A stretch of DNA of 64,000 nt from Patescibacteria group bacterium (GCA_038062115.1 JBBTXS010000004.1:69009-133008); one strand, 5' to 3'; positions 19,220-51,778 are shown, counted from the first letter of the stretch. A program made the numbers and translations. Notes: a model not told the origin generated them from the sequence alone.

Positions 19220-21291
19220 GAAAATCAAACATTTTTTATACTTTGCTTTTTTTTGGTTTTATTTTTTTTATATTTCGTAATTGGTTTCTTGCGCCTCAGA
19301 TTATTGGTGGAGACTGGCCATATCTTTTTCCTGAAATGCTGCGGGATCCTTCAATATATTTTTCTTCCTGGAATCCCGGACAAGGCAACGGTCTTGGTGG
19401 GATAAACCCTGTCTATTCTTTGAGCATGTTTTTCGGCTTCACTGTCTTTTTGGCGCACACATTTAACATTCCATGGGTATTTATTTATAAGTTTTTTTGG
19501 TTTGCTCTTCCGCTACTTTTTGGAATTTTCTCTAGTATTTATTTGGTAAAAACTATTCTCCCACAATCATCTCTATGGCAGAAATTGCTTTCTTCATCTA
19601 TTTTTATCACAAATACATATTTTCTTATGATTGTTGGAGGCGGACAAATGGGAGTTGCCTTATCTTATGCCATTGCGCCACTTGTTCTCGCTAAATTTAT
19701 AAAACTTATTGACAATCTCCTTTTAAATAAAAATTTCAAATTTCAAATTTCAAATGTCAAATACGCAATAATTAGCGGATTATTTTTGACATTACAGGTT
19801 ATGTTTGATCCAAGAATTGCTTACTTAACAATGATTGCCGTGAGCGTGTATTATGTATTTTGTATTAGGTATTACATATTGAAAAGAAATATACTTAATA
19901 CTTTATACTTAATACTTTATGCTCTTGTGATTCCTGTTAGTATTGCCTTGCTTCTTCATGCAGCATGGATACTTCCTATTTTATTTCTTCAATCAAGCCC
20001 TATCCCGCAAGGATTTACAAGTGTTGAGGGATTTCGCTTTTTTAGTTTTGCAGATGTTTCTCACGCTTTTTCTTTGCTGCATCCAAATTGGCCAGAAAAT
20101 ATTTTCGGCAAAATATATTTTATGAGAAGTGAGTTTATTTTAATACCGATATTAGCTTTTTCATCGCTGTTATTTTTAATCAATTCAACAATAAAGCAAG
20201 TCAACAATAAGGCAATATTATTCTTTGCTCTTCTTGGATTGATTGGAGTATTTTTAGCAAAGGGCGTAAGGGATCCTTTTGGGCAAGTGAATCAATGGCT
20301 CTTTATTTCTATTCCTGGAATGAGTTTTTTCCGAGATCCAACAAAATTCTACTTATTAATAATACTATCTTATTCAGTGCTCATCCCTTTCAGTTTATTA
20401 CAAATTTCAAGGAAAGTATCAAGTATCAAGTATCAAGTATTAGGCAAAAAAATAAATATGCATAATACATACTACATAATACTCGCTACTTTTTTGGTAT
20501 TCTGGTTATTTTTGATCCGCCCTGCTGTTTTTGGTGAACTTGGTGGTACATTTCAAAAACGTGAAGTACCAGAAGAATACGTAAAACTTAAAGATTTTCT
20601 ACATAGTCAGCCTGATTTTTTTAGAATTTTATGGATTCCCCGTCAGCACCGTTTTACTTACTATTCTTTAACGCATTTACCTGTTGAGGCTGAGCCGCTC
20701 TTTAAGAAAGCAAAAATTATAGATATCGTTAATCAGCTGCGGAAGCCCGGGACAAAGAAATATCTGTCAGAACTTAGTATAAAATATATCATTGTTCCAT
20801 ACGATCCAAATGGTGAAATTTTTGTAAAAGATAGAAAATACGATGAAGTTGCGTATCTTAAGGCAATCGAGCACCTAGAGGATATACCATGGCTAGTAAG
20901 ATCGAGACAATTTGAAAAAATTGCAGTGTTTGAAGCGAAGAGTTCCCCGAAAGCTCTTTTTTGGCTAGAAGAAAAAGGGAAAATTACTTATTCCACAGAC
21001 GACATTACGCATTATAATATTAATGTTGAAATCGATTCCCCGCAGAGGCTTATTTTCTCAGAAAATTTTCATCCAAAATGGCAGTTGGTACTTAGTAATA
21101 GAGTAATTCATGCACAGGAAACCGATGAAGGATTGAATAGTTTTTTATTGAGCAAGGGAAATTATCAGGGAAATATAGTATTTTCTGGAGATAAATACTA
21201 TGTGTATGGAAAAATTATATCTTTAAGTACGATGCTTTTAGTAGTTGTCTTTTTTTTTGTAATTCATAAGAAAAAAGTATACAATACATAA
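19216..21291 (+). CDS. GT-C-like polytopic membrane protein, distant paralog 4 of 4
   Basis: 691 aa, GTG start in a GTGA overlap. GGDWPYLFPE near the N-terminus, IPGMSFFRDPTKFY, FHPKWQLV C-domain motif, terminal TM. Carries two in-frame repeat arrays. Confidence 0.45.
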   Translation: MRKSNIFYTLLFFGFIFFIFRNWFLAPQIIGGDWPYLFPEMLRDPSIYFSSWNPGQGNGLGGINPVYSLSMFFGFTVFLAHTFNIPWVFIYKFFWFALPLLFGIFSSIYLVKTILPQSSLWQKLLSSSIFITNTYFLMIVGGGQMGVALSYAIAPLVLAKFIKLIDNLLLNKNFKFQISNVKYAIISGLFLTLQVMFDPRIAYLTMIAVSVYYVFCIRYYILKRNILNTLYLILYALVIPVSIALLLHAAWILPILFLQSSPIPQGFTSVEGFRFFSFADVSHAFSLLHPNWPENIFGKIYFMRSEFILIPILAFSSLLFLINSTIKQVNNKAILFFALLGLIGVFLAKGVRDPFGQVNQWLFISIPGMSFFRDPTKFYLLIILSYSVLIPFSLLQISRKVSSIKYQVLGKKINMHNTYYIILATFLVFWLFLIRPAVFGELGGTFQKREVPEEYVKLKDFLHSQPDFFRILWIPRQHRFTYYSLTHLPVEAEPLFKKAKIIDIVNQLRKPGTKKYLSELSIKYIIVPYDPNGEIFVKDRKYDEVAYLKAIEHLEDIPWLVRSRQFEKIAVFEAKSSPKALFWLEEKGKITYSTDDITHYNINVEIDSPQRLIFSENFHPKWQLVLSNRVIHAQETDEGLNSFLLSKGNYQGNIVFSGDKYYVYGKIISLSTMLLVVVFFFVIHKKKVYNT
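19732..19759. repeat. 7-nt tandem array AATTTCA x3 + AATGTCA, in-frame
   Basis: Read directly from the sequence. Translates as NFKFQISNVK inside 19216..21291. Confidence 0.85.
20416..20483. repeat. composite repeat: GTATCAA x3 + GTATTAG, A-rich spacer, TACAWAM heptamer array; in-frame
   Basis: Read directly. Translates as VSSIKYQVLGKKINMHNTYYIIL. Shares the 18-mer TACATACTACATAATACT and its overall layout with 51183..51265. Confidence 0.85.
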
Positions 21292-21297
21292 ATATTC

Positions 21298-22326
21298 ATG
21301 AAAATTATTGTTACCGGCGCTGCAGGTTTCATGGGGAGTCACTTAGTTGATTTTTTGGTAAAAAAGGGAGGACATGAGGTTTTCGCTGTTGATGACCTTT
21401 CTGGAGGATACATTGAAAATGTTAATCCAAAAGCCCATTTTACAAAACTTGACTTGAGAAATCGCGAAAAAGTGGAAAAGTATATTCAAAAAATTAAACC
21501 AGAACTTCTCTACTATTTAGCAGCAGATGCTTCGGAAGGGAGAAGTCAGTTTACTCCCCTAAGTTCTACGGAAAGAAATTATTTAGCCTATATGAACACT
21601 TTGGTTTCTTGTATTAAATATGGATTAAAAAAAGTTATAGTTACAAGCTCTATGAGCGTATATGGCGCGCAAAAGCCTCCATTTTCTGAAGATATGCCCA
21701 AAAAGCCGGAAGACATATATGGAATCGCGAAGGCCGCAATGGAAGATGCAACAGAAGTTTTAGCAAAAGTACATGGCTTTGAGTATGTAATTGTACGTCC
21801 TCATAATGTATATGGTCCAAAGCAGAATTTAGCAGATCCTTATAGAAATGTTATTGCAATTTTTATCAATTGTCTTTTAAGCAATAAGCATTTTTATATA
21901 TATGGAGAAGGAAAGCAAAAGCGAGCTTTCACCTATATTGATGATTTTACTCCATATTTTGAACAAAGCGGTTTTAGCGATAAATGCAATGGAGAAGTTC
22001 TTAATTTGGGACCTAAAGAAGAACATTCAATAAATGAGTTAGCAAATGTGGTTCTTAAGGTTTTCTTTCCAGATGGAGACATTCCAAAACTCTTATTGCC
22101 CAAGTATCTTCCCCTGCGTCCACAAGAAGTTATGGAAGCTTATTGCACTAATGATAAAGCAGCAAAATTGCTGGGTTACAAAACTACAGTAACTCTTGAA
22201 GAAGGAGTAAGGAAAATGATTGAGTGGGCAAAAACCAAGGGTCCGCAAAAATTTAAATATTTAAAAAATGGCGTAGAGTTAAAAACTAGAGACCTACCTA
22301 AGACATGGAGCGAAGAGCTAATCTGA
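21298..22326 (+). CDS. NAD-dependent sugar-nucleotide epimerase/dehydratase (extended SDR)
   Basis: IIVTGAAGFMGSHL, TSSMSVYG, YGIAKAAME (YxxxK), RPHNVYGP. Confidence 0.75.
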   Translation: MKIIVTGAAGFMGSHLVDFLVKKGGHEVFAVDDLSGGYIENVNPKAHFTKLDLRNREKVEKYIQKIKPELLYYLAADASEGRSQFTPLSSTERNYLAYMNTLVSCIKYGLKKVIVTSSMSVYGAQKPPFSEDMPKKPEDIYGIAKAAMEDATEVLAKVHGFEYVIVRPHNVYGPKQNLADPYRNVIAIFINCLLSNKHFYIYGEGKQKRAFTYIDDFTPYFEQSGFSDKCNGEVLNLGPKEEHSINELANVVLKVFFPDGDIPKLLLPKYLPLRPQEVMEAYCTNDKAAKLLGYKTTVTLEEGVRKMIEWAKTKGPQKFKYLKNGVELKTRDLPKTWSEELI

Positions 22327-22327
22327 T

Positions 22328-23356: not shown

Positions 23357-23368
23357 CTGTCAGTGCAG

Positions 23369-24598: not shown

Positions 24599-24602
24599 TA
24601 TT

Positions 24603-26371: not shown

Positions 26372-26461
26372 GCCTTGTGCGTCTTTACTTCTATTTTTTC
26401 GTGTTCACTCGTCCATAGATACGGTACGGTTGAGGAATAGTTGTCGTGTATAATGTCAAAT

Positions 26462-27400: not shown

Positions 27401-27412
27401 TGAGACTTAACA

Positions 27413-29292: not shown

Positions 29293-29361
29293 CTATAAGC
29301 TATGATTTGAATGTCACAAAAGTTAATTATATAGAGGATTAAGATTAAAGTAAAGTGTGCT

Positions 29362-29574
29362 ATGAAAATACAAGACTTTATATTCTTAATTGTTTTCTTG
29401 TTTTTAGTTATCCATAAGAATCCAAAAATGATGGTTTGGGGAGGAATCACCTGTCTTGTTTTATCTATTCCACTTTTTTCTTTTTGGATTTTTTTTACTG
29501 CAGAGCGCCTCACATGGTACGCCGCAGCATTTTTTTTATTGGCAATTATTTTTTATTTATTAAAAACTAAATGA
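29362..29574 (+). CDS. small membrane protein (2 TM), hypothetical
   Basis: 70-aa ORF consisting of two hydrophobic helices. No motif. Confidence 0.3.
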   Translation: MKIQDFIFLIVFLFLVIHKNPKMMVWGGITCLVLSIPLFSFWIFFTAERLTWYAAAFFLLAIIFYLLKTK

Positions 29575-29602
29575 ACGATAAACAAAAGCTCAATATGATA
29601 AA

Positions 29603-30360: not shown

Positions 30361-30909
30361 ATGAAAATAGGAATTGATATAAGTCAGCTTGCGTATGAGG
30401 GAACAGGGGTTTCCTCATTTGTTGCAAGATTGGTTGAGGATTTGTTGAAGATTGATAGTAAAAATGAATATATTTTGTTTTTTTCGTCCCTGCGGAAACA
30501 ATTTCTAATTTCTAATTTCAAATTTCTAAATAAATCCCAAATCCAAAACCCCAATTTAAAAATTAAGGAGTTTAGGTTTCCGCCGACCCTGCTTGATATT
30601 TTATGGAACAGACTTCATATTCTACCGATTGAGTGGTTGATTGGGGATGTTGATATTTTTATTACTTCCGATTGGACAGAGCCGCCGACAAGAAGCGCTA
30701 AGAAGGCGACGATTTTGTACGATTTAATTGTTTACAAATACCCAAACGAAACAGATAGAAAAATTGTTGAGACGCAAAAGAGAAAGCTTAAGTGGGTAAA
30801 AAAAGAAACAGATATTATATTTTGCATCTCAGAGGCAACAAAAAAAGATGCTATAGAAATATTAGGGATTGAAGAGAGTCGTTTAAAAGTTATTTATCCA
30901 GGAATTTAA
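30361..30909 (+). pseudogene. GT4 glycosyltransferase, N-terminal domain only (C-terminal catalytic half missing)
   Basis: MKIGIDISQLAYEGTGVSSF...VIYPGI then a stop. The full-length paralogs at 38270, 47727 and 59477 continue for about 200 aa after the equivalent (Y/S)(P/E/G)G(I/V) position. Its stop codon interlocks with the convergent enolase stop on TTAA. Confidence 0.6.
30500..30564. repeat. composite repeat: AATTTCT/AATTTCA heptamers + AAATAAATCCCAAATCC tail; in-frame
   Basis: Read directly. Translates as QFLISNFKFLNKSQIQNPNLKI. The 14-mer AAATAAATCCCAAA is shared with 48289-48302. Confidence 0.8.
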
Positions 30910-32171: not shown

Positions 32172-34438
32172 CTCTTGCCCTGTTCGATATTATATATAAC
32201 CCTTCGGGTTTTATTGATCACATCCGGAGCAACAGATACACTATCAATACCCCAGCGTATCAGGTTTTTGACAAGCTCAGGATAATTTGACGGAGCTTGC
32301 CCGCATATAGAGCAAAGTATTTTATATTTGCTGCATGTTTTTACTATTTTCTCAATCGCTATTTGGACTGCTTTGTTCATTTCATTAAAAGACTCTGTTA
32401 GTTTGCTATTGTCTCTATCAACACCCAAAACCAGCATGGTTAAATCATTTGACCCAATAGACACGCCATCAATTCCTACTTTTATAAAATCTTCCAAGAT
32501 TATAAAATTCGATGGGATTTCTGCCATCATATACAATAATAAATCTTTGCCCCTTTTAAGCCCAGATGCGGCAATAATTTTTTTGACCTCAATGAGCTCA
32601 TCAACTGTTCTTACAAAGGGGAGCATGATGTTTAGATTGGTAAGTTTTTTTACGTTTCTAACGTACTTTATGGCCTCAAGCTCCAGCATGAATACATCTT
32701 TGTCATGAATATATCTTGATACGCCACGGTATCCAAGCATTGGATTTTCTTCTTGCTCTTCATATTTTTCTCCACCAATAAGACCCCTATATTCATTTGT
32801 TTTAAAATCAGTTGTCCTAAAGATTACTGGCCTTGGATAAAAAGCTCCACAAATAGTTGCTAGATCCTTTGCCAAACTATCAGTAAAAACTTTTCCCTTA
32901 CCCTCACTTATTAATTTTTTTGGATGAATTCCAATTCTTGCTACCATAAATTCTGCTCGAAGGAGTCCAATGCCATCAACATTGCCTTTTGCAACCTCAA
33001 CTGCTCTTTGGGGTTCTGCAATATTTACAAAAACTTTTGTTTTGGTTTTAAGTTTGGCTGCTTCTGTATCTTCTTTTTTCTCGCTTTTTATAGATATAGC
33101 GCCTTCATAAACTTTTCCTGTATCACCAACTACTGTAATCTTCATTCCGTCTTTTAATATAGATAAAGCATTTTGGGCACCAACTATTGCTGGAATTCCA
33201 AATTCTCTAGAAACAATTGCGGCATGGGATGTTCTTCCTCCTCTTTCTGTAACAATTGCGGATGATTTTTTCATAATAGGAACATAATCAGGATTTGTAT
33301 AAGGAGCAACAAGAATATCATGAAGCTTAACTTTATCAGCGTCTTTTATGCTTTTGACTATTTTAACCTTTCCTATTGCAACACCTGGACTTGCAGGATC
33401 GCCTGTCAGAATTGGTTCTGGAAGTTTTGATGTTGAGAGTGAAATATTGTTTTTTTGATTGTTAATTGTTAACTGTTTATTGTTAATTGTTGTCACAGGT
33501 CTTGTCTGGACGATATAGAGAGTTTTTCCTTCCTTCGCCCATTCAATATCTTGAGGATAATTGTAATGCTTTTCAATAAGTTTTCCTAAACTTGCAAGTA
33601 AAACTATATCTCCATCTTCTAGTTTTTGACGTGAACCTTTACGGCTAGTTAATCTTATATCTTTATTTTCTCCATTTTGAAGCCTTAACATATTTTTTTG
33701 CGGTTCTACTTTTTTTGCCACAATTTTTAAAGAATCCTTGTTTACTTCGTAGTGATCTGGTGTTACTTTTCCTCCAACTATATATTCGCCTAGCCCGTAA
33801 ATTGCTTCGATTGCTATAGTCTTCCTATCATGCGTTACTGGATCTATTGTAAACATTACGCCAGAAGATTTTGAATCAACCATTTTTTGGACAACTAAAG
33901 ATATAGCAACTTTATTATCGTTAAGTTTATTTTCGTGTCTGTAAAACATAGCCCGTGCCGTAAAAAGCGATGCCCAGCCACCCAAAATTGCTTTGGTTAA
34001 GTTTTGGTTGCCTGAAACGTTAAGAAATGTCGCTTGCTGGCCTGCAAACGATGCGGTTTTTGAATCCTCGGATGTTGCAGAAGATCTTACTGCCACATGC
34101 GCATTTTCTCCTAGTTTTTTATAATGCTGCAAAACTGCATCAAGTATTTTAGGACTAATTGTTCCTCTTACAATAACATCTTTAATTTTTTTTGAAGAGT
34201 TGCTTAAGGAGTTTGGATCTTTATAATCTGTAGATTTCATTATTTTTTGTATTTTTTGCTTGAGATTATTTTCTTTTATGAACGTTTGATAGGCAGTTGA
34301 TGTTATAACAAAGCCATTGGGGATTGGAAAATTTGCTCTTAGCATTTCGCCAAGATTAGCAGCTTTTCCTCCGACATATGGAGCGAGCCTTTTGTCTATT
34401 TTGGACAGCCACAAAACAAAATCTTTTTGAGCGTTCAT
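32168..34438 (-). CDS. ppsA: phosphoenolpyruvate synthase (pyruvate, water dikinase)
   Basis: 756 aa. N-terminal PEP/pyruvate-binding domain (VGGKAANLGEM), swivel domain GGRTSHAAIVSREFGIPAIVG, C-terminal TIM barrel (GIGLLRAEFM, SIGSNDLT). A repeat-derived insert sits in the linker. Confidence 0.85.
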   Translation of the reverse strand: MNAQKDFVLWLSKIDKRLAPYVGGKAANLGEMLRANFPIPNGFVITSTAYQTFIKENNLKQKIQKIMKSTDYKDPNSLSNSSKKIKDVIVRGTISPKILDAVLQHYKKLGENAHVAVRSSATSEDSKTASFAGQQATFLNVSGNQNLTKAILGGWASLFTARAMFYRHENKLNDNKVAISLVVQKMVDSKSSGVMFTIDPVTHDRKTIAIEAIYGLGEYIVGGKVTPDHYEVNKDSLKIVAKKVEPQKNMLRLQNGENKDIRLTSRKGSRQKLEDGDIVLLASLGKLIEKHYNYPQDIEWAKEGKTLYIVQTRPVTTINNKQLTINNQKNNISLSTSKLPEPILTGDPASPGVAIGKVKIVKSIKDADKVKLHDILVAPYTNPDYVPIMKKSSAIVTERGGRTSHAAIVSREFGIPAIVGAQNALSILKDGMKITVVGDTGKVYEGAISIKSEKKEDTEAAKLKTKTKVFVNIAEPQRAVEVAKGNVDGIGLLRAEFMVARIGIHPKKLISEGKGKVFTDSLAKDLATICGAFYPRPVIFRTTDFKTNEYRGLIGGEKYEEQEENPMLGYRGVSRYIHDKDVFMLELEAIKYVRNVKKLTNLNIMLPFVRTVDELIEVKKIIAASGLKRGKDLLLYMMAEIPSNFIILEDFIKVGIDGVSIGSNDLTMLVLGVDRDNSKLTESFNEMNKAVQIAIEKIVKTCSKYKILCSICGQAPSNYPELVKNLIRWGIDSVSVAPDVINKTRRVIYNIEQGKR
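33445..33491. repeat. 7-nt array (coding-strand AACAATT family, about 6 units), in-frame in the ppsA interdomain linker
   Basis: The plus strand reads TATTGTT..GATTGTT AATTGTT AACTGTT TATTGTT AATTGTT. Translates on the minus strand as TINNKQLTINNQKNN. Confidence 0.8.
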
Positions 34439-37997: not shown

Positions 37998-38007
37998 AAT
38001 AAAACAT

Positions 38008-38208: not shown

Positions 38209-38269
38209 CCCACATGTGGTATCATAATAGAGTAAGTCTGTCACCGATTTATATCGCAGGAAAGATTTT

Positions 38270-39472
38270 ATGTTGATTGGTATTGACGGCAACGAGGCTA
38301 ATGTAGAAAAAAGAGTTGGGGTTGGAGAATACTCCTTTGAACTACTTCGGCAGCTCAAAGAATCTAGAATTCAGAATCTAGAATTCAGAATCTATTTAAA
38401 AAGAAAACCTCAAGATGATTTTCCAAAAGAATCCACAAACTGGCAATATCGAATTATCGGACCGCGCAAACTGTGGACGCAGATAGGATTACCATTTGAT
38501 TTGTATTTCCATAAACCAAAACCCGATGTGTTTTTTACACCCACCCATTATGCTCCACGCTTTTCTCCTATTTCAACTGTAATTTCAGTAATGGATTTAT
38601 CCTACATCCATTTTCCTGAGATGTTTAAACCTTCAGATTTGTATCAGCTTAAGAATTGGACGGGATATTCAGTGAGAAATGCAAAAAAGATCTTAACTAT
38701 CAGCAGAGCCAGTAAAGATGATATAATCAAATTGCATCAAGTGTTAGAAGAGAAGGTGGTAGTTACTTATCCAGGAATAAAAGTCAAAAGTCAAATGTCT
38801 CCGCCAAAGGCGGATCAGCCTCTGGCTGAAAAATCCAAAATGCAAAGTTCAAAAGTGCTTAAAGAAAAATATAAGATTGAAGGGGATTATATTTTGTTTG
38901 TGGGGACGCTGCAGCCGAGGAAGAATATTGTGAGGCTTATTGAAGCATTCTCAAGGATTATACACCCCCGAGGTGTGCGTGCCGTCGCAAACCACCTCGG
39001 GGGTGGCCGAATGGACTCCCCCGAGGTGAACTATTTGGTCATTGTTGGTAAAAAGGGATGGTTATACGGGGAGATATTTGAGGCTCCTAAGAAGTTTGGA
39101 GTAGAAGATAGAGTTAAGTTTTTAGATTTTGTTCCCGATGAAGATCTTCCTCTTTTTTATCAAAATGCTCTTTGCTTTGTTTTGCCAAGTCTATATGAAG
39201 GGTTTGGTTTGCCGGTTTTGGAAGCAATGCAATACGGCTGCCCTGTAATTACAAGTAATGTCAGTAGTCTTCCCGAGGCAGGAGGAGATGCGGCACTTTA
39301 TGTAAATCCGCTGGATGTTGAGGACATTAAAAAAAATTTAGAATTCATAATTCAGAGTTCAGAATTACGTAAAAAGCTTATCGAAAAAGGATATAAACAA
39401 GTTAAAAAGTTTAGTTGGGAGAAAACAGCGAGAGAAACTTTGAGCGTATTGGAGGACGTGGCGAGAACTTGA
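38270..39472 (+). CDS. glycosyltransferase family 4 carrying four in-frame repeat-derived segments
   Basis: [42 protein letters not shown]. Paralog of 47727 and 59477. Confidence 0.85.
38363..38390. repeat. 7-nt array TCTAGAA TTCAGAA x2 (perfect 14-mer x2), in-frame
   Basis: Read directly. Translates as [10 protein letters not shown]. Only this reading frame of the array lacks stops. Confidence 0.85.
38780..38857. repeat. 78-nt composite: AAAGTCA heptamers, twin GC hairpins TCCGCCaaaGGCGGA + TCAGCCtctGGCTGA, then AAAATSC-type heptamers; in-frame (26 codons)
   Basis: Read directly. Translates as [26 protein letters not shown] in the interdomain linker. Confidence 0.8.
38963..39031. repeat. 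GC-rich 69-nt element, copy E1, in-frame (23 codons)
   Basis: CCCCCGAGGTG (38965-38975) and an identical copy (39018-39028) are both perfectly complementary to CACCTCGGGGG (38993-39003). Translates as [23 protein letters not shown]. Confidence 0.8.
39337..39364. repeat. 7-nt array TTTAGAA TTCATAA TTCAGAG TTCAGAA, in-frame
   Basis: Read directly. Translates as [11 protein letters not shown] near the C-terminus of the GT4. Confidence 0.75.
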
Positions 39473-39475
39473 ATT

Positions 39476-40042
39476 ATGAATAATGAATTAGAAATTAAGG
39501 TTAAAAACAGAATCAAGACAATTTTGCTGGAATTTGCAGTTATGAAATTGCATTTTGTTGGTTTTGTGCCTTCACATCATTTCCGTAGATTTTTCTATAG
39601 ATTAGCTGGAATAAAAATTGGTAAAGGATCAACACTCCATACAGGTACAAGATTTTATAATCCATCTAATATAGAAATTGGGCAAGATTCTATTATTGGT
39701 GAGGGAACTGTTTTAGATGGGAGAGATAAACTAATAATTGGCAATCATGTTGATATTGCCTCAGAAGTTATGATTTATAACTCCGAACACGATGTGCAAA
39801 GCGATGATTTTCGTGCAGTTACTGCACCGGTAATAATTGAAGACTATGTTTTTATCGGTCCTCGTGCAATCATTTTGCCAGGGGTTAAAATCGGTAAAGG
39901 AGCAGTAATTGGGGCTGGGGCTGTGGTTACAAAGGCTGTTAAGAGTTTCGCAATTGTTGGAGGTGTGCCTGCACAAAAGATTGGAGAAAGAAAGATTAAA
40001 GATCTTAAGTATAAATTAGGAAGAGCGGCGTGGTTTAGATAA
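39476..40042 (+). CDS. hexapeptide-repeat (LbH) sugar O-acetyltransferase, WcaF/maltose-acetyltransferase-like
   Basis: IGKGSTLHTGTRF..IGQDSIIGEGTVL..IGNHVDIASEV..IEDYVFIGPRAIILPGVKIGKGAVIGAGAVV hexapeptide repeats. Confidence 0.8.
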   Translation: MNNELEIKVKNRIKTILLEFAVMKLHFVGFVPSHHFRRFFYRLAGIKIGKGSTLHTGTRFYNPSNIEIGQDSIIGEGTVLDGRDKLIIGNHVDIASEVMIYNSEHDVQSDDFRAVTAPVIIEDYVFIGPRAIILPGVKIGKGAVIGAGAVVTKAVKSFAIVGGVPAQKIGERKIKDLKYKLGRAAWFR

Positions 40043-40046
40043 GGAT

Positions 40047-40141: not shown

Positions 40142-41035
40142 ATGACATTTCTATCAATAGTTATTCTTTCCTATAACACAAAAGACTTAACGCTTTCTTG
40201 CTTGCAATCGTTGATAGAACAATACAGAAAGGAGTTAAAAAGTGGGACGGTTGAGATTATTGTTGTTGATAATGCGTCAACTGATGGCTCGGTAGAAAGT
40301 ATTAAGTATTATGTATTAAGTAGTAAGTATAAAGACGTTAGATTAAGGGTTATAGAAAATGACGAGAATTTGGGGTTTGCTAAGGGTTGTAATATAGGGG
40401 CAAAAAAATCAAAAGGGAAATATATTCTTTTTCTAAATTCGGATACACAAGTGCTAGACAAGGGTTTTTTGAAAATGATAGGGTTTTTAGATAGTAATCA
40501 AAAAGTTGGAATTTTGGGAGGAAGGCTTTTAAATCCAGACAATTCACCCCAACCATCTGCTGGAAAATTTTACAATCTTTTTAATTTATTTTTAATGCTT
40601 ATAGGTAGCGAAAGATTTGGATTACTCCGTAAAAGTCCCAAAAATATTGAAAGAGTTGATTGGGTAAGCGGAGCATGTTTGATGATAGGGAAAAGCGTAT
40701 TTGATCAACTAAAGGGATTTGATGAAAATTTCTTTATGTATATCGAAGATATGGAACTGTGCTTTAGAGCAAACAAACTTGGTTTTTTAACTTATTTTTA
40801 TCCAGATATCAAGATAATACATAAAGAACTTGGAAGTAGCAATCGGTCTTTTGCTATAATACACATCTATAAAGGGCTTTTGTATTTTTACTCCAAGCAC
40901 AAAGGTTACTTTCAATATATTATTGCCAAAGTAATGCTAGAAGTGAAAGCTAAAGTCGGAATTGTTGTCGGTTTCCTTATTGGCAATTCTTCCTTAAAGA
41001 AAACTTACATTGAGGCAATAAAATTTAAGATATGA
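40142..41035 (+). CDS. glycosyltransferase family 2
   Basis: LSIVILSYNTKDLT, VVDNASTDGS, LGFAKGCN, LFLNSDT, FFMYIEDMELCFR. Confidence 0.85.
   Translation: MTFLSIVILSYNTKDLTLSCLQSLIEQYRKELKSGTVEIIVVDNASTDGSVESIKYYVLSSKYKDVRLRVIENDENLGFAKGCNIGAKKSKGKYILFLNSDTQVLDKGFLKMIGFLDSNQKVGILGGRLLNPDNSPQPSAGKFYNLFNLFLMLIGSERFGLLRKSPKNIERVDWVSGACLMIGKSVFDQLKGFDENFFMYIEDMELCFRANKLGFLTYFYPDIKIIHKELGSSNRSFAIIHIYKGLLYFYSKHKGYFQYIIAKVMLEVKAKVGIVVGFLIGNSSLKKTYIEAIKFKI
40299..40333. repeat. 7-nt array GTATTAA GTATTAT GTATTAA GTAGTAA GTATAAA, in-frame
   Basis: Read directly. Translates as SIKYYVLSSKYK directly after the DNASTDGS motif. Confidence 0.85.
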
Positions 41036-45662: not shown

Positions 45663-46831
45663 GAAAGATATTGTTTCTTACTTATGATTTTCCTTATCCC
45701 GCAAATACCGGGGGCAAGAACAGAGCGTTTAATCTCATAAAGCATGCTAACAAAAACGTAGAGATTCATTTGGCTTCTTTTGTAAGAGATGATTTTAGAA
45801 AAGAATATGAAAAAGAACTAAAAAAAGTAGGAGTTAAGACGATTACGATATTCAAAAGAAGAAAATTAAAAGACATTAGAAATATTAAATTTTTATTTTC
45901 TAAGTCTTCGATCTTTCGACTCCTGTATTATAGAAAAAGCGTTGAAGATTCTATTCTGGATATTGTGAGATCTTTGAAGATAAATGTTGTTCATTTTGAA
46001 TCCTACTACACTTCGTTTTACATTGGGAAAAAGATTAGAGATGTGGGGGCGAAGCAAATATTCGGCACAGAAAACATAGAGCATTTTTTATACAAAGACT
46101 ATGCAAAACACAGCAGTTGGTTGAAGCATTTTATTTTGGATCGCCAAATTAGAAAAATAGAAAATGAAGAGAAGGAATTCTTAAAACTTTCCGATAAAAA
46201 TATTGCTGTAACAGACGATGAGGCAAAGTTTATCCAAAGCATAACTGGTAAAAAATGTAGCATAATTCCAAATGGAGTTGATCTTGATGATTTTACATAT
46301 AATCATCCCTCCAAAAAACTCGCAAACACCCTTCTTTTTATAGGGAATTTTAGTTATTTTCCAAATATTGATGCGATAAATTATTTTTACAACAAAGTTT
46401 TCAAGAAATTGAATGAAAACATAAAACTTTTAATAATCGGAAAAAATGCAGAAAAACTGGATATGTCAAAAGACAGTAGAATTGAAACAATATCTTTTGT
46501 TGAAGACATCAAAGAAGCCTACAATAGAGCTGATATCATGGTGTTTCCAGTTAGGGTTGGAGGAGGAACTAATTTTAAGATACTTGAGGCAATGGCTTAT
46601 GGAATTCCAATAATTGCTGATCCTGCAAGAATCGATAGTTTTGGGGTTAAAGATGGACGCGAGATGTTTTTGGCGAAAACGCCTTTAGAATACGAACAAA
46701 AAATAGATTTACTGCTTAAGGATTTTAGCTTAAGAGAGAAGCTCTCAAAAAATGCTAGGAAACTTGTAGAAAAAGGTTATTCATGGAAACCAATTGGAGA
46801 CAACCTTAATGCTATATGGAAAAACATATGA
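45659..46831 (+). CDS. glycosyltransferase family 4
   Basis: ILFLTYDFPYPANTGGKNR, LFIGNFSYFPN, GGGTNFKILEAMAYGIPIIA. Confidence 0.8.
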   Translation: MRKILFLTYDFPYPANTGGKNRAFNLIKHANKNVEIHLASFVRDDFRKEYEKELKKVGVKTITIFKRRKLKDIRNIKFLFSKSSIFRLLYYRKSVEDSILDIVRSLKINVVHFESYYTSFYIGKKIRDVGAKQIFGTENIEHFLYKDYAKHSSWLKHFILDRQIRKIENEEKEFLKLSDKNIAVTDDEAKFIQSITGKKCSIIPNGVDLDDFTYNHPSKKLANTLLFIGNFSYFPNIDAINYFYNKVFKKLNENIKLLIIGKNAEKLDMSKDSRIETISFVEDIKEAYNRADIMVFPVRVGGGTNFKILEAMAYGIPIIADPARIDSFGVKDGREMFLAKTPLEYEQKIDLLLKDFSLREKLSKNARKLVEKGYSWKPIGDNLNAIWKNI

Positions 46832-47730
46832 ATAAAAAAATTGATGTATCAATTGTTGTAGTTACCTACAACTCGTTTGACACCATAAAAGAATGCATTG
46901 ATTCTATTGAAAAAACCGTTAAAAAAAACTCATTTGAAATTGTTGTTGTTGACAATAATTCATCGGATGGATCCGCAGAGGGTATTAAGTATTATGTATC
47001 AAGTATTAAGTATGAGAACGTTAGAATTATTCCAAATAAAAAAAACATAGGGTTTTCGAAGGCCAACAATCAGGGCGTCAAAATTTCACAAAAAAGCCGT
47101 TATGTTTTGTTTTTGAATCCCGATGCAATCGTTTATGAAAACACTATTGATGGGATGGTGGATTTTATGAACAAAACTCCCAACGCGGGAGCGGCAACGT
47201 GTTTTATAGAGCTTAAAAATGGCAGACTTGACGATTCCTGCCACAGAGGGTTTCCTACACCTTGGAGGTCTTTATGTTATTTTATGGGTTTATCAAAGTT
47301 TTTTCCAAAAAGTAAATTTTTTGCAGGGTATAACATGACCTATCTTGGTCTTAATAAAACTCACGAGATAGATGCTCTGGGAGGGTCTTTTATGCTGATA
47401 AGGCGCGAAATAGGCAAAAGATTGGGTTGGTGGGACGAAGACTTTTTCTTTTATGGAGAAGATATAGACTTTTGTTTTAGAATAAAAGAAATAGGGTATA
47501 AAATATATTTTGTACCCGAATATAAAGCGCTTCATTACAAAGGGGTTTCAAGCGGAATAAAAAAAGTTTCGGAGTCAATAAGCAAAGCAACAAAAGAAAC
47601 AAAACTTTTTGCAACAAAACATAGATTTAACGCGATGCGAATTTTCTACAAGAAACATTATGAAAAAAAGTATCCAAAAATTGTTACGTGGCTTGTTTAT
47701 GGGGCAATTTGGGCTAAAGAACATTTATGA
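46828..47730 (+). CDS. glycosyltransferase family 2
   Basis: VSIVVVTYNSFDT, VVDNNSSDGS, IGFSKANN, LFLNPDA, FFFYGEDIDFCFR. ATG 46828 (ATGA overlap) is preferred over the track start 46816. Confidence 0.85.
   Translation: MNKKIDVSIVVVTYNSFDTIKECIDSIEKTVKKNSFEIVVVDNNSSDGSAEGIKYYVSSIKYENVRIIPNKKNIGFSKANNQGVKISQKSRYVLFLNPDAIVYENTIDGMVDFMNKTPNAGAATCFIELKNGRLDDSCHRGFPTPWRSLCYFMGLSKFFPKSKFFAGYNMTYLGLNKTHEIDALGGSFMLIRREIGKRLGWWDEDFFFYGEDIDFCFRIKEIGYKIYFVPEYKALHYKGVSSGIKKVSESISKATKETKLFATKHRFNAMRIFYKKHYEKKYPKIVTWLVYGAIWAKEHL
46982..47016. repeat. 7-nt array GTATTAA GTATTAT GTATCAA GTATTAA GTATGAG, in-frame
   Basis: Read directly. Translates as GIKYYVSSIKYE. 37 of 42 nt are identical to 40299-40340 by my count. 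Confidence 0.85.
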
Positions 47731-48869
47731 AAATAGGAATTGATGCTAGGCTTTGGAATGAGTCGGGAGTTGGAAAATACACTAGGAATCTTGTTGAACA
47801 GCTTCAGATAATTGATCGCAAGAATGAGTACATGTTGTTTGTTTTAAGTCAAGATAGAAAAAAGATTCTGAATCAAGTTCAGAATGACAATTTTAGCATA
47901 GTAAATGCAGACATAAGGTGGCATACACTGGAAGAGCAGATGAAGTTTTCATCGATAATTAATAAAGAAGATTTGGATTTAATGCACTTTACTTATCCTT
48001 CGGTTCCTATTTTTTACAATAAGCCTTTTATTGTTACAATTCATGATTTAATTTTGCATCATTTTCCGACAGGAGAAGCCTCAACTTTGGCTTTGCCTTT
48101 ATATTATTTAAAGCACTTCGCATACAAATTAGTGATTTTGCAAGCAGCAAAAAAGGCAAAAAGAATTATTGCAGTATCAAAGGCTACAAAAAAGGAGATT
48201 ATTGACCATCTTAGAGTACCAGAAAAAAAAGTAGTGGTAATATATGAAGGGGTAAGTAACGAGATTACAAATCCAAAATCTCAAATTCCAAATAAATCCC
48301 AAAATCCTAAATACAAAATACTTAATACTAAATACTTTTTGTACGTTGGGAATGCATATCCGCACAAGAACCTAGAGCGAATGCTTATGGCATTCGCAAG
48401 TATTAAGTATAGAGTATTAAGTATAAAGTTGGTTTTTGTTGGCAGAGAGGATTATTTTTACAAAAGATTAAAAGAAAAGGTAAAAAATATGGGTTTAGGA
48501 AAATCAGTGAATTTTTTAGGAGAAGTTAGCGATGATGAATTGATCTGTCTTTATAGAGATGCGAGAGCATTAGTTATTCCATCCTTGATGGAAGGGTTTG
48601 GGCTTCCAGCGTTGGAAGCCATGGCAAATAAATGTTTAGTTTTAGCATCAGATATTCCTTCGTTGAAAGAGGTCTGCGGAAATGCGGCAATTTATTTTGA
48701 TCCTTATGGTATTGATGATATATCAAAAAAAATGATAGAGGTTTACTCTAATGACATAAATCATTATAGTAGCAATATCAACAAAGGTTTTGAAAAAACA
48801 AAAATATTTTCTTGGGAGAAAATGACAAGAGAAACTCTAAAGGTATACGAAAGCTGCGTTGGCGGCTGA
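47727..48869 (+). CDS. glycosyltransferase family 4 carrying at least three in-frame repeat-derived segments
   Basis: MKIGIDARLWNESGVGKYT, LYVGNAYPHKN, PSLMEGFGLPALEAMANKCLVLASDIPSLKE. Confidence 0.85.
   Translation: MKIGIDARLWNESGVGKYTRNLVEQLQIIDRKNEYMLFVLSQDRKKILNQVQNDNFSIVNADIRWHTLEEQMKFSSIINKEDLDLMHFTYPSVPIFYNKPFIVTIHDLILHHFPTGEASTLALPLYYLKHFAYKLVILQAAKKAKRIIAVSKATKKEIIDHLRVPEKKVVVIYEGVSNEITNPKSQIPNKSQNPKYKILNTKYFLYVGNAYPHKNLERMLMAFASIKYRVLSIKLVFVGREDYFYKRLKEKVKNMGLGKSVNFLGEVSDDELICLYRDARALVIPSLMEGFGLPALEAMANKCLVLASDIPSLKEVCGNAAIYFDPYGIDDISKKMIEVYSNDINHYSSNINKGFEKTKIFSWEKMTRETLKVYESCVGG
47875..47902. repeat. half-unit of the GTCATT/ATGACAATT palindromic family (hairpin ATTCTGAA-tcaag-TTCAGAAT + GACAATT end), in-frame
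   Basis: Read directly. Translates as ILNQVQNDNF. Confidence 0.7.
48267..48334. repeat. composite repeat: AAATCY heptamers + AAATAAATCCCAAAATCC + four reverse-orientation GTATTAA-family units (TAAATAC AAAATAC TTAATAC TAAATAC); in-frame
   Basis: Read directly. Translates as NPKSQIPNKSQNPKYKILNTKY in the interdomain linker. Confidence 0.8.
48400..48427. repeat. 7-nt array GTATTAA GTATAGA GTATTAA GTATAAA, in-frame
   Basis: Read directly. Translates as SIKYRVLSIK, at the same alignment position as the GC-rich element E1 in the 38270 paralog. Confidence 0.85.
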
Positions 48870-48874
48870 GCCGT

Positions 48875-48955
48875 ACCGCAGGTGTAATCGTATCTACACC
48901 TCGGATGGTGGCAGCCCTGAGCGAAGTCGAAGGGCATGACTCCTCCGAGGTGGAC
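48875..48955. repeat. GC-rich element, copy E2 (intergenic, chimeric)
   Basis: CCGCAGGTGTA..TACACCTCGG hairpin, then GGTGG, then AGCCCTGAGCGAAGTCGAAGGGC, then GACTCCTCCGAGGTGGAC. Starts 6 nt after the GT4 stop. Confidence 0.7.
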
Positions 48956-49183
48956 ATCAGATTGGGAATGCTATTGTGGTTTGGTAGTCGTACTTGGATT
49001 TAGTGTTTAGCGGACCGTATTTATATGTTTCAAAGACCAAGCCTCTAAGTTTTATCTTCTGGCTTTCTATATACGAAAACAGCTTTTGGTAAATGAGAAT
49101 TAAATATTTATATGGACCATTATAGTTAAATGCTAAGACTTTGGTTTTGGGGTAAGGTTTGAAATAAAAATCATTATGTTGGT

Positions 49184-49254
49184 ATTCACCTTGGAGGAGC
49201 CGAGGTCGTTGCCTCGTCACCTCCGAGGTGTTGCGGAGCGATTCTTCGAAGGTG
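49184..49254. repeat. GC-rich element, copy E3 (reverse orientation, about 71 nt, degenerate)
   Basis: The reverse complement aligns with 63288-63356 over its whole length (shared ...GAGGCARCGACCTCG.CTCCT.C.AGG.GAA). Confidence 0.7.
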
Positions 49255-49274
49255 GAGCTTAGTATAAAGGTTAT

Positions 49275-49383
49275 GGCTGGGTCATAAATACCCATTTGTC
49301 ATTCCGAGCGAGCGTGAGCGAGTCGAGGAATCTCGTTGAAGGAGATTTCTCGGCAAGCTCGAAATGACAATTGTGACCCAGTC
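49275..49383. mobile_element. MITE-like nested palindromic element flanked by an 11-bp direct repeat
   Basis: Outer inverted repeat GGCTGGGTCA / TGACCCAGTC. Inner GTCATTCCGAG...CTCGAAATGAC (49298-49368). ATAAAGGTTAT occurs at 49264-49274 and again at 49384-49394. Confidence 0.5.
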
Positions 49384-49598
49384 ATAAAGGTTATCTCAAG
49401 AGGCGTATTTTGGGATTATAGGCGTTGTTGAGATAAAAAGTTATCTCAGAGGGTTTACATTTTAGCTTTAATCTTTTTGCTTCTTGCCAAAGAGTTTTTA
49501 TATACTCAGTAATCTTTGCATATTCCCCGTGTCCTACTTTCATACAAAATAGATTGAATGGGCCAAAGTTTTTGGTTTGAAATATGTTCTTTATGCTC

Positions 49599-49636
49599 GT
49601 CATTCTGGCAAGCGAAGAATGAGCGCGTCCAGAATC
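49599..49636. repeat. half-unit of the GTCATT palindromic family (GTCATTCTGG..CCAGAATC)
   Basis: Read directly. Overlaps the putative start of the GyrI-like pseudogene. Confidence 0.55.
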
Positions 49637-49660
49637 TATATCGTTTTGGAAGAAAAATGA

Positions 49661-49885
49661 CTTAATATTTTTCAGGAACCTATAGTCGATAGAATTCAAA
49701 GAGATAACGCAATTTTTTCTATCGTATCTGTAGGTAGTCTAGATATTATTGATCCTAAAAAAGACGAAAACGGTAGATATTTCTGTGGTTACAATCAAGA
49801 AGAGTATCGTGGGCTTTTGAATAAATTAAAAGCGGATTTGCTTTTGACCATGTTTCTTCGCGGCGGCGCACCGATTGTGAAGTAG
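49661..49885 (+). pseudogene. orphan open frame without a start codon (3' remnant of an unidentified gene)
   Basis: 74 sense codons ending ...DENGRYFCGYNQEEYRGLLNKLKADLLLTMFLRGGAPIVK then TAG. There is no ATG/GTG/TTG until close to the end. Confidence 0.2.
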
Positions 49886-49889
49886 CTGT

Positions 49890-50300
49890 CTACATTTCCA
49901 ATATTGTAGTTTTGTCTTTCATGACTAAAGTTAGTAGCTCTAAACATTGCAGCCTTCCTAGTAATGCTGGAATATCATTCCTATTTAAAAATCCCACAGG
50001 AATTCTATTTTCAAAGCTTCCTATTTTCGTGCGGACACCTTTCTTGTATAGATAAATTGCCTCTTTCCCACCGACGCCATAAGTATTTTCTAAAAAACAT
50101 TCTTTTTCTAATTCGATTCCCAAAAGTTCAGCATACCTTTTTGGGAAAAGCGAATAGTCTGCTCCGGTATCAACAACCATTTCAACTGGAATCCATTCGT
50201 CAATCTGATCAGAAGTTATAAGAATTTGTAGATATGGACGGTAAATTTTACCCAAAATACCCTTCCCTCGAAAGCTAAAACGAGAAGATATTATTTTCAT
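49890..50300 (-). CDS. retropepsin-like (clan AA) aspartic protease
   Basis: VEMVVDTGADYSLFP (D-T-G active site) and a C-terminal ALLGRL motif. Single-domain size of 136 aa. Confidence 0.7.
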   Translation of the reverse strand: MKIISSRFSFRGKGILGKIYRPYLQILITSDQIDEWIPVEMVVDTGADYSLFPKRYAELLGIELEKECFLENTYGVGGKEAIYLYKKGVRTKIGSFENRIPVGFLNRNDIPALLGRLQCLELLTLVMKDKTTILEM

Positions 50301-50536
50301 TTAAAGATAAGAATGTAAGAAGTTCCAGGATGTGGGACAAATACTAGAACTGGCGACTTGCCATATTTTTCTTTTAATCTCTTGAATCTTTCAAGTGCCC
50401 TTTTGCCACGTGCTAAAGGAACAACTTCCTTATCTACTACAAATACCTGTTTTCCACCATACTTTTTAACCAGAGGATGTAAACCAGAAAGCAGTGCGTT
50501 TAATGTTTTTCCTGTTTTATCCTCTATTTTTTTCAT
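50297..50536 (-). CDS. small DUF5678-like protein, translationally coupled to the aspartic protease
   Basis: MKKIEDKTG...YGGKQVFVVDKEVVPLARGKRALERFKRLKEKYGKSPVLVFVP. ATGA overlap with the protease gene. The longer track ORF (to 50704) overlaps the divergent GT4 start region and was trimmed to Met57. Confidence 0.5.
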   Translation of the reverse strand: MKKIEDKTGKTLNALLSGLHPLVKKYGGKQVFVVDKEVVPLARGKRALERFKRLKEKYGKSPVLVFVPHPGTSYILIFK

Positions 50537-50632
50537 AACAACTTTATTGTAAACAAAATATTCAAAGATTGCAAGCGGTTGTGGGTTCGACGGGCTGCTT
50601 CTTATCATGATAAAATAGGCGGAGTATTTACA

Positions 50633-51778
50633 ATGAAAATTGCATTGGTGTATGATCGGGTAAATAAGTGGGGAGGGGCAGAGAGAGTGCTTTTGGCATT
50701 GCATGAATTATTTCCAGATGCACCTATTTACACTTCGGTTTACAATCCAATAACTGCATCTTGGGCTAAAACTTTCGATGTTAGAAGTTCATTCTTGCAG
50801 AAATTTCCTTTGGCATCTATAGCTCATGAGTTATATGCGGTCTTGATGCCCATTGCCTTTGAAAGTTTTTCTTTTGACCAATATGATCTTGTAATTTCAG
50901 TTACGAGTGAGGCTGCAAAAGGGATAATAACCAAACCAAAAACAAAGCATATTTGCTATTGTCTAACTCCAACCCGTTATCTTTGGAGTGCTTACGATGA
51001 TTACTTTAGAAATCCCTTATTGCGATTTCTATCAAAACCAGTAGTTTCGTATCTTAGGACTTGGGATAAAATTGCAGCGCAAAGGCCAGATGCGTACGTT
51101 GCAATTTCTCAAGAGGTCAAAAGAAGAATTAAAAAATATTATGGGAGAGAGTCAGTGGTTGTATACCCGCCAGTAGACATCAGTAGTATGTATCATGTAT
51201 CAAGTATTAAGTATAAAAAAAATGCAAATGAAATACATAATACAAACTACATACTACATAATACTGTCGATTACTTCCTCATCGTCTCTCGGCTTGTTCC
51301 ATACAAACGAATTGATATTGCGATTAGAGCATTTAATAAGCTTAGACTTCCATTAAAAATTATTGGCGTAGGGTCACAAGAAAAGTATCTTAAAAGCATC
51401 AGTAGCCCAACTATAGAATTCCTTGGCAACTTGACTGAAGATGAGTTAGTAAGCTATTATAAGGGATGTCGTGCTTTAATTTTTGTAGGTGTTGAAGATT
51501 TTGGTCTTACTGTTTTGGAGGCACAGAGTTTTGGAAAACCCGTGATTGCGTTTCGCGGAGGCGGTACACTGGAGACTATAAAAGAAGGAAAAACTGGTGA
51601 GTTTTTTAGTCAACAAAATCCAAAATCACTTACAGATGTGCTTAAAAGATTCGATGAAAGAAAATATAAAAGTACTGACTGCATAGAGAATGCTAAAAAG
51701 TTTTCGTTTGAAAGATTTAAAGAAAAGCTTATGGATGTCGTTGCGAGGAGTTTAGCGACGAAGCAATCTCAAATTTGA
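50633..51778 (+). CDS. glycosyltransferase family 4
   Basis: MKIALVYDRVNKWGGAERVL, FLIVSRLVPYKR, VGVEDFGLTVLEAQSFGKPVIA. Start trimmed from 50579 to ATG 50633. The last 14 codons and the stop lie inside a palindromic repeat. Confidence 0.85.
   Translation: MKIALVYDRVNKWGGAERVLLALHELFPDAPIYTSVYNPITASWAKTFDVRSSFLQKFPLASIAHELYAVLMPIAFESFSFDQYDLVISVTSEAAKGIITKPKTKHICYCLTPTRYLWSAYDDYFRNPLLRFLSKPVVSYLRTWDKIAAQRPDAYVAISQEVKRRIKKYYGRESVVVYPPVDISSMYHVSSIKYKKNANEIHNTNYILHNTVDYFLIVSRLVPYKRIDIAIRAFNKLRLPLKIIGVGSQEKYLKSISSPTIEFLGNLTEDELVSYYKGCRALIFVGVEDFGLTVLEAQSFGKPVIAFRGGGTLETIKEGKTGEFFSQQNPKSLTDVLKRFDERKYKSTDCIENAKKFSFERFKEKLMDVVARSLATKQSQI
51183..51265. repeat. composite repeat: five GTATYAA-family units, A-rich spacer, four TACAWAM units; in-frame
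   Basis: Read directly. Translates as SSMYHVSSIKYKKNANEIHNTNYILHNT. Same architecture and orientation as 20416..20483. Confidence 0.85.

Follow-up and report, generated by a model that had tools for sequence, protein, structure and literature searches.

Simple sequence repeats (SSRs) with heptanucleotide units are over-represented in many prokaryotes (Mrazek, Guo & Shah 2007, as relayed in PMC4679880 and PMC4692102). The account of that study in PMC4679880 mentions 7 nt as a suggested polymerase contact length and polymerase slippage as the proposed origin of long SSRs (LSSRs). Described heptamer LSSRs include GGGAATC of Xanthomonas and Nostoc and TAACTGA of Beggiatoaceae, cyanobacteria, and Bacteroidetes (PMC4679880, PMC4692102); they are mainly intergenic and under-represented in open reading frames (ORFs), and according to PMC4679880 repeats in coding sequence mostly have units that are multiples of three. 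Here we describe short tandem arrays of 7-nt units that lie predominantly within genes, in a stretch of 64,000 nt from a Patescibacteria group bacterium (GCA_038062115.1, JBBTXS010000004.1:69009-133008), hereafter the window, and in related genomes. The source genome is covered here by these 64 kb only, which have 33% G+C and form one very large glycosylation cluster. The source appears to be a metagenome-assembled genome of Candidatus Levybacteria from Hainich groundwater: the nearest named homologs of the window proteins belong to Candidatus Levybacteria, and the same proteins are present in Hainich groundwater metagenomes.

Several families of tandem heptamers dispersed in one genome are also familiar from cyanobacteria, where Mazel et al. 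are said to have described them in 1990 as short tandemly repeated repetitive (STRR) sequences. STRR arrays occur inside the RNase P RNA gene of heterocystous cyanobacteria, and Elhai et al. reportedly found, in 2008, small dispersed repeats nested in the heptamer arrays of Nostoc. Rickettsia palindromic elements (RPEs) are ~100-150 bp long, have a family consensus, and are presumed to be mobile. A coding precedent for a heptanucleotide repeat is found in neuO of the Escherichia coli K1 prophage CUS-3, which contains an in-frame variable number tandem repeat (VNTR), the poly-psi tract of AAGACTC units, three of which encode one disordered heptad, RLKTQDS (PMC3046976). This is one long and pure array at the 5' end of the gene, ranging from 2 to 93 copies, for which slippage and ON/OFF switching were shown (PMC3046976).

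The arrays described here resemble LSSRs in their tandem 7-nt units, the few copies per array, the many dispersed arrays, and the specific excess of period 7. Two further likenesses are occasional inverted pairs in Xanthomonas and a TAACTGA unit that is translatable in one orientation only (LSVISYQ in reverse). In contrast to the mainly intergenic LSSRs described before, each with one dominant unit, 82% of the present arrays lie in ORFs and are presumably translated, and their units are AT-rich and very diverse. We treat the intergenic location as a habit of the described cases and not as a defining feature, so that the arrays share the defining features of LSSRs (tandem 7-mers, specific excess, and dispersion) but invert their usual location. 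With STRRs they share the occurrence of several heptamer families and the ability to sit at a permissive, variable position of a functional gene, and GC-rich hairpins nested in some arrays resemble the nesting of small dispersed repeats in Nostoc heptamers; STRRs, however, contain G/C, are mostly intergenic, belong to another phylum, and do not have residence in protein-coding genes as their main feature. The likeness to RPEs drawn in the original prediction, which was made from the window sequence alone, is a loose one: repeated DNA does sit in frame in unrelated ORFs at permissive, surface-exposed positions, and ~11% of arrays form palindromic pairs, but the arrays are only 28-55 nt long, comprise 117 units among 251 arrays, have neither a conserved element nor a common consensus or termini, and seem to form and be replaced where they lie. 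Like the tract of neuO, which is stop-free, A-rich, and disordered in translation (PMC3046976), they place a heptanucleotide unit inside the coding region of surface-polysaccharide enzymes; unlike it, they are many, short (4-8 units), often interrupted, and located in internal loops of many genes, and neither copy-number variation nor OFF alleles were seen among them in the assemblies. The claim that such arrays lack a formal description therefore cannot extend to heptanucleotide SSRs, STRRs, or the neuO VNTR, all of which are described. Literature searches pairing heptamer or SSR repeats with Patescibacteria or the candidate phyla radiation (CPR) yielded nothing relevant, and neither a predominantly coding location in Patescibacteria nor the concentration in linkers of GT4 glycosyltransferases was found described. 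We consider the arrays to be, probably, AT-rich heptanucleotide microsatellites of the LSSR/STRR type, generated and remodelled by a DNA process biased toward 7 nt, kept where they are tolerated, and filtered by selection.

Tandem heptamers in a glycosylation cluster and its relatives

Tandem Repeats Finder (TRF) returned ~20 rows of period 7 between 19.7 and 51.3 kb of the window. A lag scan, in which 21-nt segments with at least 17 matches at a given lag were scored, found 13 regions at lag 7 compared with 0.0 in 20 dinucleotide-preserving shuffles; 8 regions were found at lag 14, the harmonic of 7, and no other lag from 2 to 24 was enriched. The 13-20 regions hold 4-6.7 units each in the lag-7 scan and fall into at least six unit families, of which the GTATTAA family recurs at ~10 sites. 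The longest perfect run is 3.9 units, with 66-96% matches otherwise (TRF). All arrays listed in the original prediction were recovered at, or within a few bases of, their positions by TRF, the lag-7 scan, and inspection of the sequence, and all but one lie inside intact ORFs, the array at 39470-39497 instead falling on a stop/start junction. An assembly artefact was rejected because independent assemblies from other wells carry the window arrays identical base for base, and arrays are also found in ~100 metagenome-assembled genomes (MAGs) of unrelated studies.

The scan was extended to relatives: regions surrounding orthologs of the GT4 gene at 47727-48869 were fetched, 80 from GTDB and 80 from metagenomes, and gave 155 non-redundant loci (labelled L001 and so on) totalling 2.12 Mb. 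Here lag 7 scored 251 arrays and lag 14 scored 182, far above the 34 at lag 8 and the 1-14 at each of the other lags from 4 to 15; in the 80 GTDB loci alone there were 127 arrays at lag 7 versus 0-26 at other lags. Array density was ~118 per Mb over the 155 loci and highest, ~135 per Mb, in the Levybacteria-like loci L005-L038. Elsewhere it was patchy, with 0 arrays in 74 kb of four loci labelled Gottesmanbacteria and 6-11 each in L045, L083, and L072. Arrays measured 28-55 nt and had 4-8 units (median 5.1, maximum 7.9), and the 117 distinct canonical units among the 251 arrays mean that they do not represent one mobile element or sequence. Period-8 arrays were mildly enriched relative to the other non-harmonic lags (34 versus 1-14), one example being GGTACAAA x4 in a GT4 linker of L068 (2671-2721). 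Many GTDB records, including L005, L007, and L010, are Patescibacteria by content and titled 'uncultured Gammaproteobacteria' or 'Bdellovibrionales' (binchicken/SRP co-assemblies), and such titles are unreliable for taxonomy.

With ORFs defined mechanically and translation of the arrays assumed, 207 of the 251 arrays (82%) lie within open stretches of at least 100 codons. Random placement would put 229±5 there, and 44 arrays are intergenic where ~22 are expected, so intergenic DNA is only ~2-fold enriched; most arrays end up in genes because these genomes have almost no intergenic DNA. All 31 non-ORF arrays among the first 140 lie in ordinary spacers between one stop and the next start. Two of the intergenic arrays (L047 14656-14697 and L058 13876-13920) are orthologous, have TTAACAA/TTGACAA units with repeated TTGACA hexamers just 5' of an ORF of ~662 aa, and might be promoter-associated repeats.

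The genes that bear arrays are mostly glycosyltransferases: 50 of 77 are GT4 (Glycos_transf_1), 8 are PMT_2, and 7 are GT2. The GT4 share of 65% (50/77) compares with 18% (25/138) among array-free control genes of the same loci (Fisher p = 1e-11), an enrichment measured within glycosylation neighbourhoods only, since all loci were sampled around one GT4 gene. Arrays are also present in LepA (3), MraW (2), PpsA, and a Mur ligase, and surface genes are therefore not the only ones that the process affects. In the encoded proteins, array segments lie in variable loops or separate one Pfam domain from the next. GT4 47727-48869 has its Glyco_transf_4 domain up to residue 177 and Glycos_transf_1 from residue 199 on, with arrays encoding residues 181-204; in GT4 50579-51778, arrays take up the interval from residue 202 to 230. 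When GT4 47727-48869 was modelled with AlphaFold2 (mean predicted local distance difference test score, pLDDT, of 82.9), residues 175-195 were the sole long segment with pLDDT <50, and the array-encoded linker of this protein is thus predicted to be unstructured.

Turnover of units and selection on reading frames

Whether the arrays are repeats of DNA or an ancient peptide motif was to be decided, in the original prediction, by comparing orthologs, and the outcome favours the DNA repeat that it had proposed. At the linker of GT4 47727-48869 the units differ by species: AAATCCC and AAATACT in the window, AAATATC in L005, GCAGTTA in L006, AAATTGG x4 in L007, CAATTMA and GAATMAC in L009, a perfect AAATTTC x5 in L056, CGTATCA in L058, and AATTCCA x4 in L144. 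CTACCAG x5 is also among the units of this linker, being a perfect array in L045, and more distant orthologs of GT4 47727-48869 have plain, non-repetitive linkers of 13-22 residues. The linker of the second GT4 (50579-51778) is hypervariable, from 12 to 60 residues over 80 orthologs, and L100 and L101, ~91% identical overall, carry unrelated arrays in both GT4 linkers. Given the different units at one site and the non-repetitive linkers of distant orthologs, the arrays are repeats of DNA, which appear to form and be replaced at the site itself. Inheritance is nonetheless seen for some: a GT2 array in L005 (2063-2099) has the unit order of the window array at 46982, and the inverted pair at 51183/51231 is kept in L060 (9307-9397) with 89% identity over 73 nt.

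A protein motif of the SIKY or KFKIQNS type, with heptads kept for function and the DNA periodicity incidental, would account for such conservation of some arrays between species and for QNTKYKILNT, a peptide that the GT4 linker has in >10 orthologs. A 7-nt period in DNA cannot, however, arise from selection for a 7-aa peptide, one and the same site has unrelated peptides in other species and no repeat in distant orthologs, and the segment is predicted to be disordered. We rejected this explanation, which the ortholog comparisons effectively refute and which is now scarcely credible.

The reading frames hold less information than first supposed. Because 7 ≡ 1 (mod 3), all three frames of an array give the same cyclic heptapeptide from the same seven codons, and the shared phase of the five GTATTAA-family arrays that the original prediction remarked on, although real, could not be otherwise. 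It had also placed a deviant unit at each would-be stop codon, and this is indeed so for 12 of 12 such codons in the window and for 54 of 54 in the first 109 in-ORF arrays; as evidence it fails, because an array inside an open ORF cannot hold an in-frame stop. Deviation is also not confined to these codons: among the remaining codons it affects 29 of 123 in the window arrays and 28% in the 109 in-ORF arrays. Nor does every perfect array contain a stop in every frame, since AAATTTC (19732), GTATCAA (20416), AATTCAG (39335), and AAAAGTC/AAAATCC have 0 would-be stops in any coding-strand frame. As a test for 21-nt quantisation, the lengths of perfect lag-7 runs within ORFs were uninformative, ranging from 12 to 31 without a distinct peak.

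Support for the claim that selection keeps host ORFs open comes from orientation instead of from stops or phase. Where a unit is stop-free on one strand only, this strand is the coding strand in a ratio of 95:13 in ORFs, versus 12:9 for intergenic arrays, whose orientation was taken relative to the operon strand (Fisher p = 0.002). This bias is non-circular evidence, and it supports the view that arrays are filtered for openness. The reading fits the protein context as well: CAATTTT (FSIFNFQ) is used in PMT_2 membrane proteins, and the A-rich readings NSKFKIQ, NWKLEIG, and SSIKYQV are used in soluble GT4s.

Origin of the arrays and alternative explanations

For heptanucleotide microsatellites of the LSSR/STRR type we envisage the following route. 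Arrays would arise and be remodelled by a DNA-level process, most likely replication slippage together with local template switching, and in Candidatus Levybacteria and certain neighbouring Patescibacteria this process would strongly favour 7-nt units. They would persist only where an arbitrary low-complexity insert is tolerated, in disordered interdomain linkers and surface loops and above all in the two-domain GT4 enzymes, and would survive there when their unit has no stop on the coding strand or when the would-be stop codon (one per 21 nt) has mutated. A further filter would act on the peptide, whose heptad-periodic reading must suit its context, K/N/Q/S/F-rich in soluble enzymes and F/I/L-rich in membrane proteins. 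Most arrays would thus be near-neutral passengers rather than switches.

Several observations sit uneasily with this route. Pure slippage does not predict inverted pairs of arrays, yet a reverse-complement partner array lies within 130 nt of 28 of 248 arrays (~11%), the control flanks yielding 0, and the window has four inverted pairs with fold z of -2.9 to -4.7. The unit repertoire is narrower than for random 7-mers (117 distinct units versus 208 expected), with favoured units such as AAAATTC (17 versus 4.5 expected) and AAAATTG (13). The compound array at 30497 in the window is 97.7% identical over 44 nt to one in a different GT4 gene (L018 11657), which hints at transfer between sites or a sequence-specific process, although this likeness, and the use of CAATTTT in two gene families, could equally reflect unit preference or convergence. 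Function, instead of tolerance, could underlie the strong enrichment of GT4 genes. Finally, the birth of a 7-nt array within an ORF without frameshifted intermediates is left unexplained.

Function would be expected of contingency loci, NeuO-like cassettes in which ±1 unit switches a glycosyltransferase off or on and ±3 units alter linker length, giving episymbionts a variable surface glycan. The precedent is close (PMC3046976), the unit length is not a multiple of three, the arrays lie in ORFs of a surface-polysaccharide cluster and are strongly enriched in GT4 genes, and some relatives, such as L056 and L045, have perfect five-unit arrays in GT4 linkers. Between assemblies at least 98.8% identical, however, 21 of 21 arrays are unchanged, as are 2 of 3 at 94-95% identity, with changes only at 94% or below. 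The length differences of in-ORF arrays between related genomes (at most 94% identical) are net 3, 15, and 3 nt, all multiples of 3, and an intergenic array differs between L100 and L101 by exactly 7 nt, one unit. None of the 251 arrays coincides with a frameshift junction, split gene, or OFF allele in consensus assemblies, which are blind to low-frequency variants, and the tracts in the window are short and interrupted. Two properties that define a contingency locus, a long pure slipping tract and copy-number polymorphism with ON and OFF frames, were both not seen among the arrays in these assemblies, and LepA, MraW, PpsA, and the Mur ligase are hosts as well. Without copy-number variation or a frameshifted allele, phase variation is unsupported, and we regard the contingency-locus explanation as doubtful. 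Candidate cases were examined and dismissed: the split GT2 gene at array 46982 in contig L001 is due to a scaffolding gap of Ns, with the array itself identical; length variants among cluster members of eight array-bearing proteins are contig-end fragments only; and the split of P0135 in L086 is caused by a point difference elsewhere. A coverage-3 contig end from another Hainich well (L085 2430-2655, P0136), compared with window 19650-19900, is identical to the window until midway through the AAATTTC array (19731) and unrelated thereafter. This may reflect chimeric assembly at the repeat or a structural variant that breaks within the array, and is not a change in unit number. A related and unlikely view is that the arrays are the footprint of an active lineage-specific generator, a reiterative or template-switch synthesis of direct and fold-back arrays, exploited as evolvability cassettes for surface-glycan diversity. 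If true, episymbiotic ultra-small bacteria would have a means by which linkers are created or retuned, in-frame microhomology arises between paralogous glycosyltransferases, and frameshifts occasionally occur.

The inverted pairs invite two other explanations. They could be mobile palindromic mini-elements, like RPEs, miniature inverted-repeat transposable elements (MITEs), or repetitive extragenic palindromic (REP) sequences, inserted in frame as units and possibly by a hairpin-recognising enzyme. The folding pairs and their excess over control flanks agree with this, as do the ~10 GTATTAA sites in the window, the near-identical compound arrays in non-orthologous genes, and other small palindromes, for which in-frame insertion into these loops and into arrays is clear. 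We nevertheless find it distinctly improbable, since the 117 unit types have no common consensus or termini, hairpins at one linker use different units in different species, and the search of the window, which was not exhaustive, showed no transposase-like gene. In addition, 60 nt of conserved coding sequence lie between the two arms of the 48302/48398 pair, which were therefore not inserted as one element. Alternatively, the hairpins could be functional RNA or DNA structures that are selected in scarce free space, serving as REP-like mRNA stabilisers, processing sites, or ribosome pause sites at domain boundaries. Arrays do lie at domain boundaries, and in the linker of the second GT4 fold-back arrays occur in ~12 of 80 orthologs at the same interdomain position with units that differ by species, a pattern resembling covariation (L115 dG -42 kcal/mol, z -7.6; L023 z -5.2; window z -4.6). 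But most orthologs have no hairpin there, many linkers fold no better than shuffles, and ~89% of all arrays lack an inverted partner, which makes this explanation very improbable. Under slippage with template switching, the fold-back arrays and the inserts nested in some arrays may reflect local template switching and other small insertions at permissive A-rich sites.

Array sites in the window and their consequences

The heptamer arrays span 19.7-51.3 kb of the window, and GT4 and GT2 genes at 1-19 kb and 52-64 kb have none; those described below are on the plus strand unless noted. The membrane-protein ORF 19216-21291 contains three groups. An AAATTTC array of ~4.6 units at 19724..19765, whose unit is stop-free on the coding strand, reads NKNFKFQISNVKY. 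It is followed by an inverted pair formed by a GTATTAn array at 19846-19875 (VYYVFCIRYY) and a reverse-complement-type ATACTTA array at 19889-19925 (ILNTLYLILYA), and this pair (19846..19925) folds as a hairpin (19843-19928, dG -21.2, z -4.06). At 20410..20482, a perfect AAGTATC x3.9 array (RKVSSIKYQVLG) precedes a reverse-type CATAATA array (20455-20482), with a fold z of -2.87.

The compound array at 30497..30554 consists of AATTTCT (30497-30532) and AAATCCC (30532-30554) units, reads QFLISNFKFLNKSQIQNPN, and has two would-be TAA codons altered. Its host, the short gene 30361-30909, is a stand-alone gene for the N-terminal GT4 domain only and ends exactly at the interdomain-linker position (...VIYPGI*). 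This gene is kept in L134 (168-701) directly 5' of the L134 ortholog of GT4 38270-39472; in the window ~7.4 kb with enolase, ppsA, FBPase_3, and small ORFs lie between the two. The AACAATT array at 33452..33491 is on the coding strand of ppsA (minus strand), reads TINNKQLTINNQK, and sits between PPDK_N (aa 20-326) and the mobile (swivel) domain (aa 373-441).

Three arrays fall within GT4 38270-39472. The first, at 38359..38394, has period 14 (2x7) with 2.6 copies of AGAATCTAGAATTC at 100%. The interdomain linker carries an AAAAGTC/AAAATCC/AAAGTTC array at 38779..38858 in which a GC-rich double hairpin of 30 nt (38800-38829), a segment that the L134 ortholog does not have, is nested in phase, and an AATTCAG array (NLEFIIQSS) lies close to the C-terminus at 39335..39366. 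The TGAATTA-type array at 39470..39497, the sole window array outside a single ORF, spans the stop of this gene and the start of 39476-40042. In the GT2 gene 40142-41035, a GTATTAA array at 40291..40334 occupies the loop after the DNASTDGS motif, reads VESIKYYVLSSKYK, and has two would-be stops altered; the L134 ortholog has an AAATCTT-type peptide at this site. Its paralog 46816-47730 has a GTATTAA array (IKYYVSSIKY) at the equivalent structural site, 46982..47013, with no difference between three independent assemblies.

The interdomain linker of GT4 47727-48869 contains a CAAATCC array followed by a reverse-type AAATACT array (48268..48337, NPKSQIPNKSQNPKYKILNTKY), and a loop of the C-terminal domain contains an AAGTATW array (48398..48429, ASIKYRVLSIK). 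The latter and 48302-48337 form a pair whose arms are separated by 60 nt of conserved coding sequence (fold z -4.68). GT4 50579-51778 has an inverted pair in its interdomain linker (51183..51264, SMYHVSSIKYKKNANEIHNTNYILHNT), made up of a GTATCAA/GTATTAA array at 51183-51218 and a reverse-type AATACAT array at 51231-51264, that folds with dG -19.2 and z -4.18.

Other small palindromes accompany the arrays. GC-rich palindromes of 21-60 nt are nested in frame in arrays in the window (38800-38829) and at L097 10529-10618, L100 1650-1748, L111 6016-6138, and L146 10469-10549. Excising them restores the phase of the array, and L101, 91% identical to L100, does not have the 21-nt insert of the latter. 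These inserts seem to form a mini-insertion class of their own, one that targets or tolerates the sites where arrays occur. A further GC-rich hairpin at 38960-39030 (CACCCCCGAGGTG ... CACCTCGGGGGTG) is in frame in GT4 38270-39472, where the L134 ortholog has a short AT-rich loop, and probably contributes to the raised local G+C (0.39) of 36-40 kb. The 23-nt palindrome ATTCTGAAyNAAGTTCAGAATGA occurs twice in the window, at 47865-47887 (+) and 56926-56948 (-), with 0 expected. It encodes ILNQVQND in GT4 47727-48869, and orthologs have the opposite reading (CHPELVSGS...) at another loop. Two orthologs of this gene carry an element of the SFPRKRESR...IRSGMT type, so this protein family has in-frame insertions of several kinds of repeat.

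The surrounding cluster holds many GT4 and GT2 glycosyltransferases, PMT_2-type membrane transferases, sugar epimerases, and Wzy/ABC export genes, with ppsA, enolase, and an FBPase_3 gene placed among them in the middle of the window. At 49890-50704 (-), two small ORFs lie among glycosyltransferase genes, one of which has weak matches to the retroviral-type aspartic protease families PF13650 and PF13975 in a precomputed table for L001.

In genomes with almost no intergenic DNA, a simple repeat that is usually deemed non-coding is thus carried mainly in genes and presumably translated. The arrays would be a cheap source of new disordered linker sequence in enzymes, and they account for much of the length variation among CPR glycosyltransferase orthologs. 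Their segments will confuse homology searches, domain annotation, and assembly, as in the contig that leaves the window inside an array. Each megabase of Levybacteria DNA also has some 100-200 sites that are potential frameshift hotspots, with glycosyltransferases holding the greatest concentration, and the question of phase variation in these uncultured episymbionts is directly testable with existing metagenomic reads. If the arrays are only neutral passengers, they would still be a tidy case of mutation bias combined with a purifying filter.

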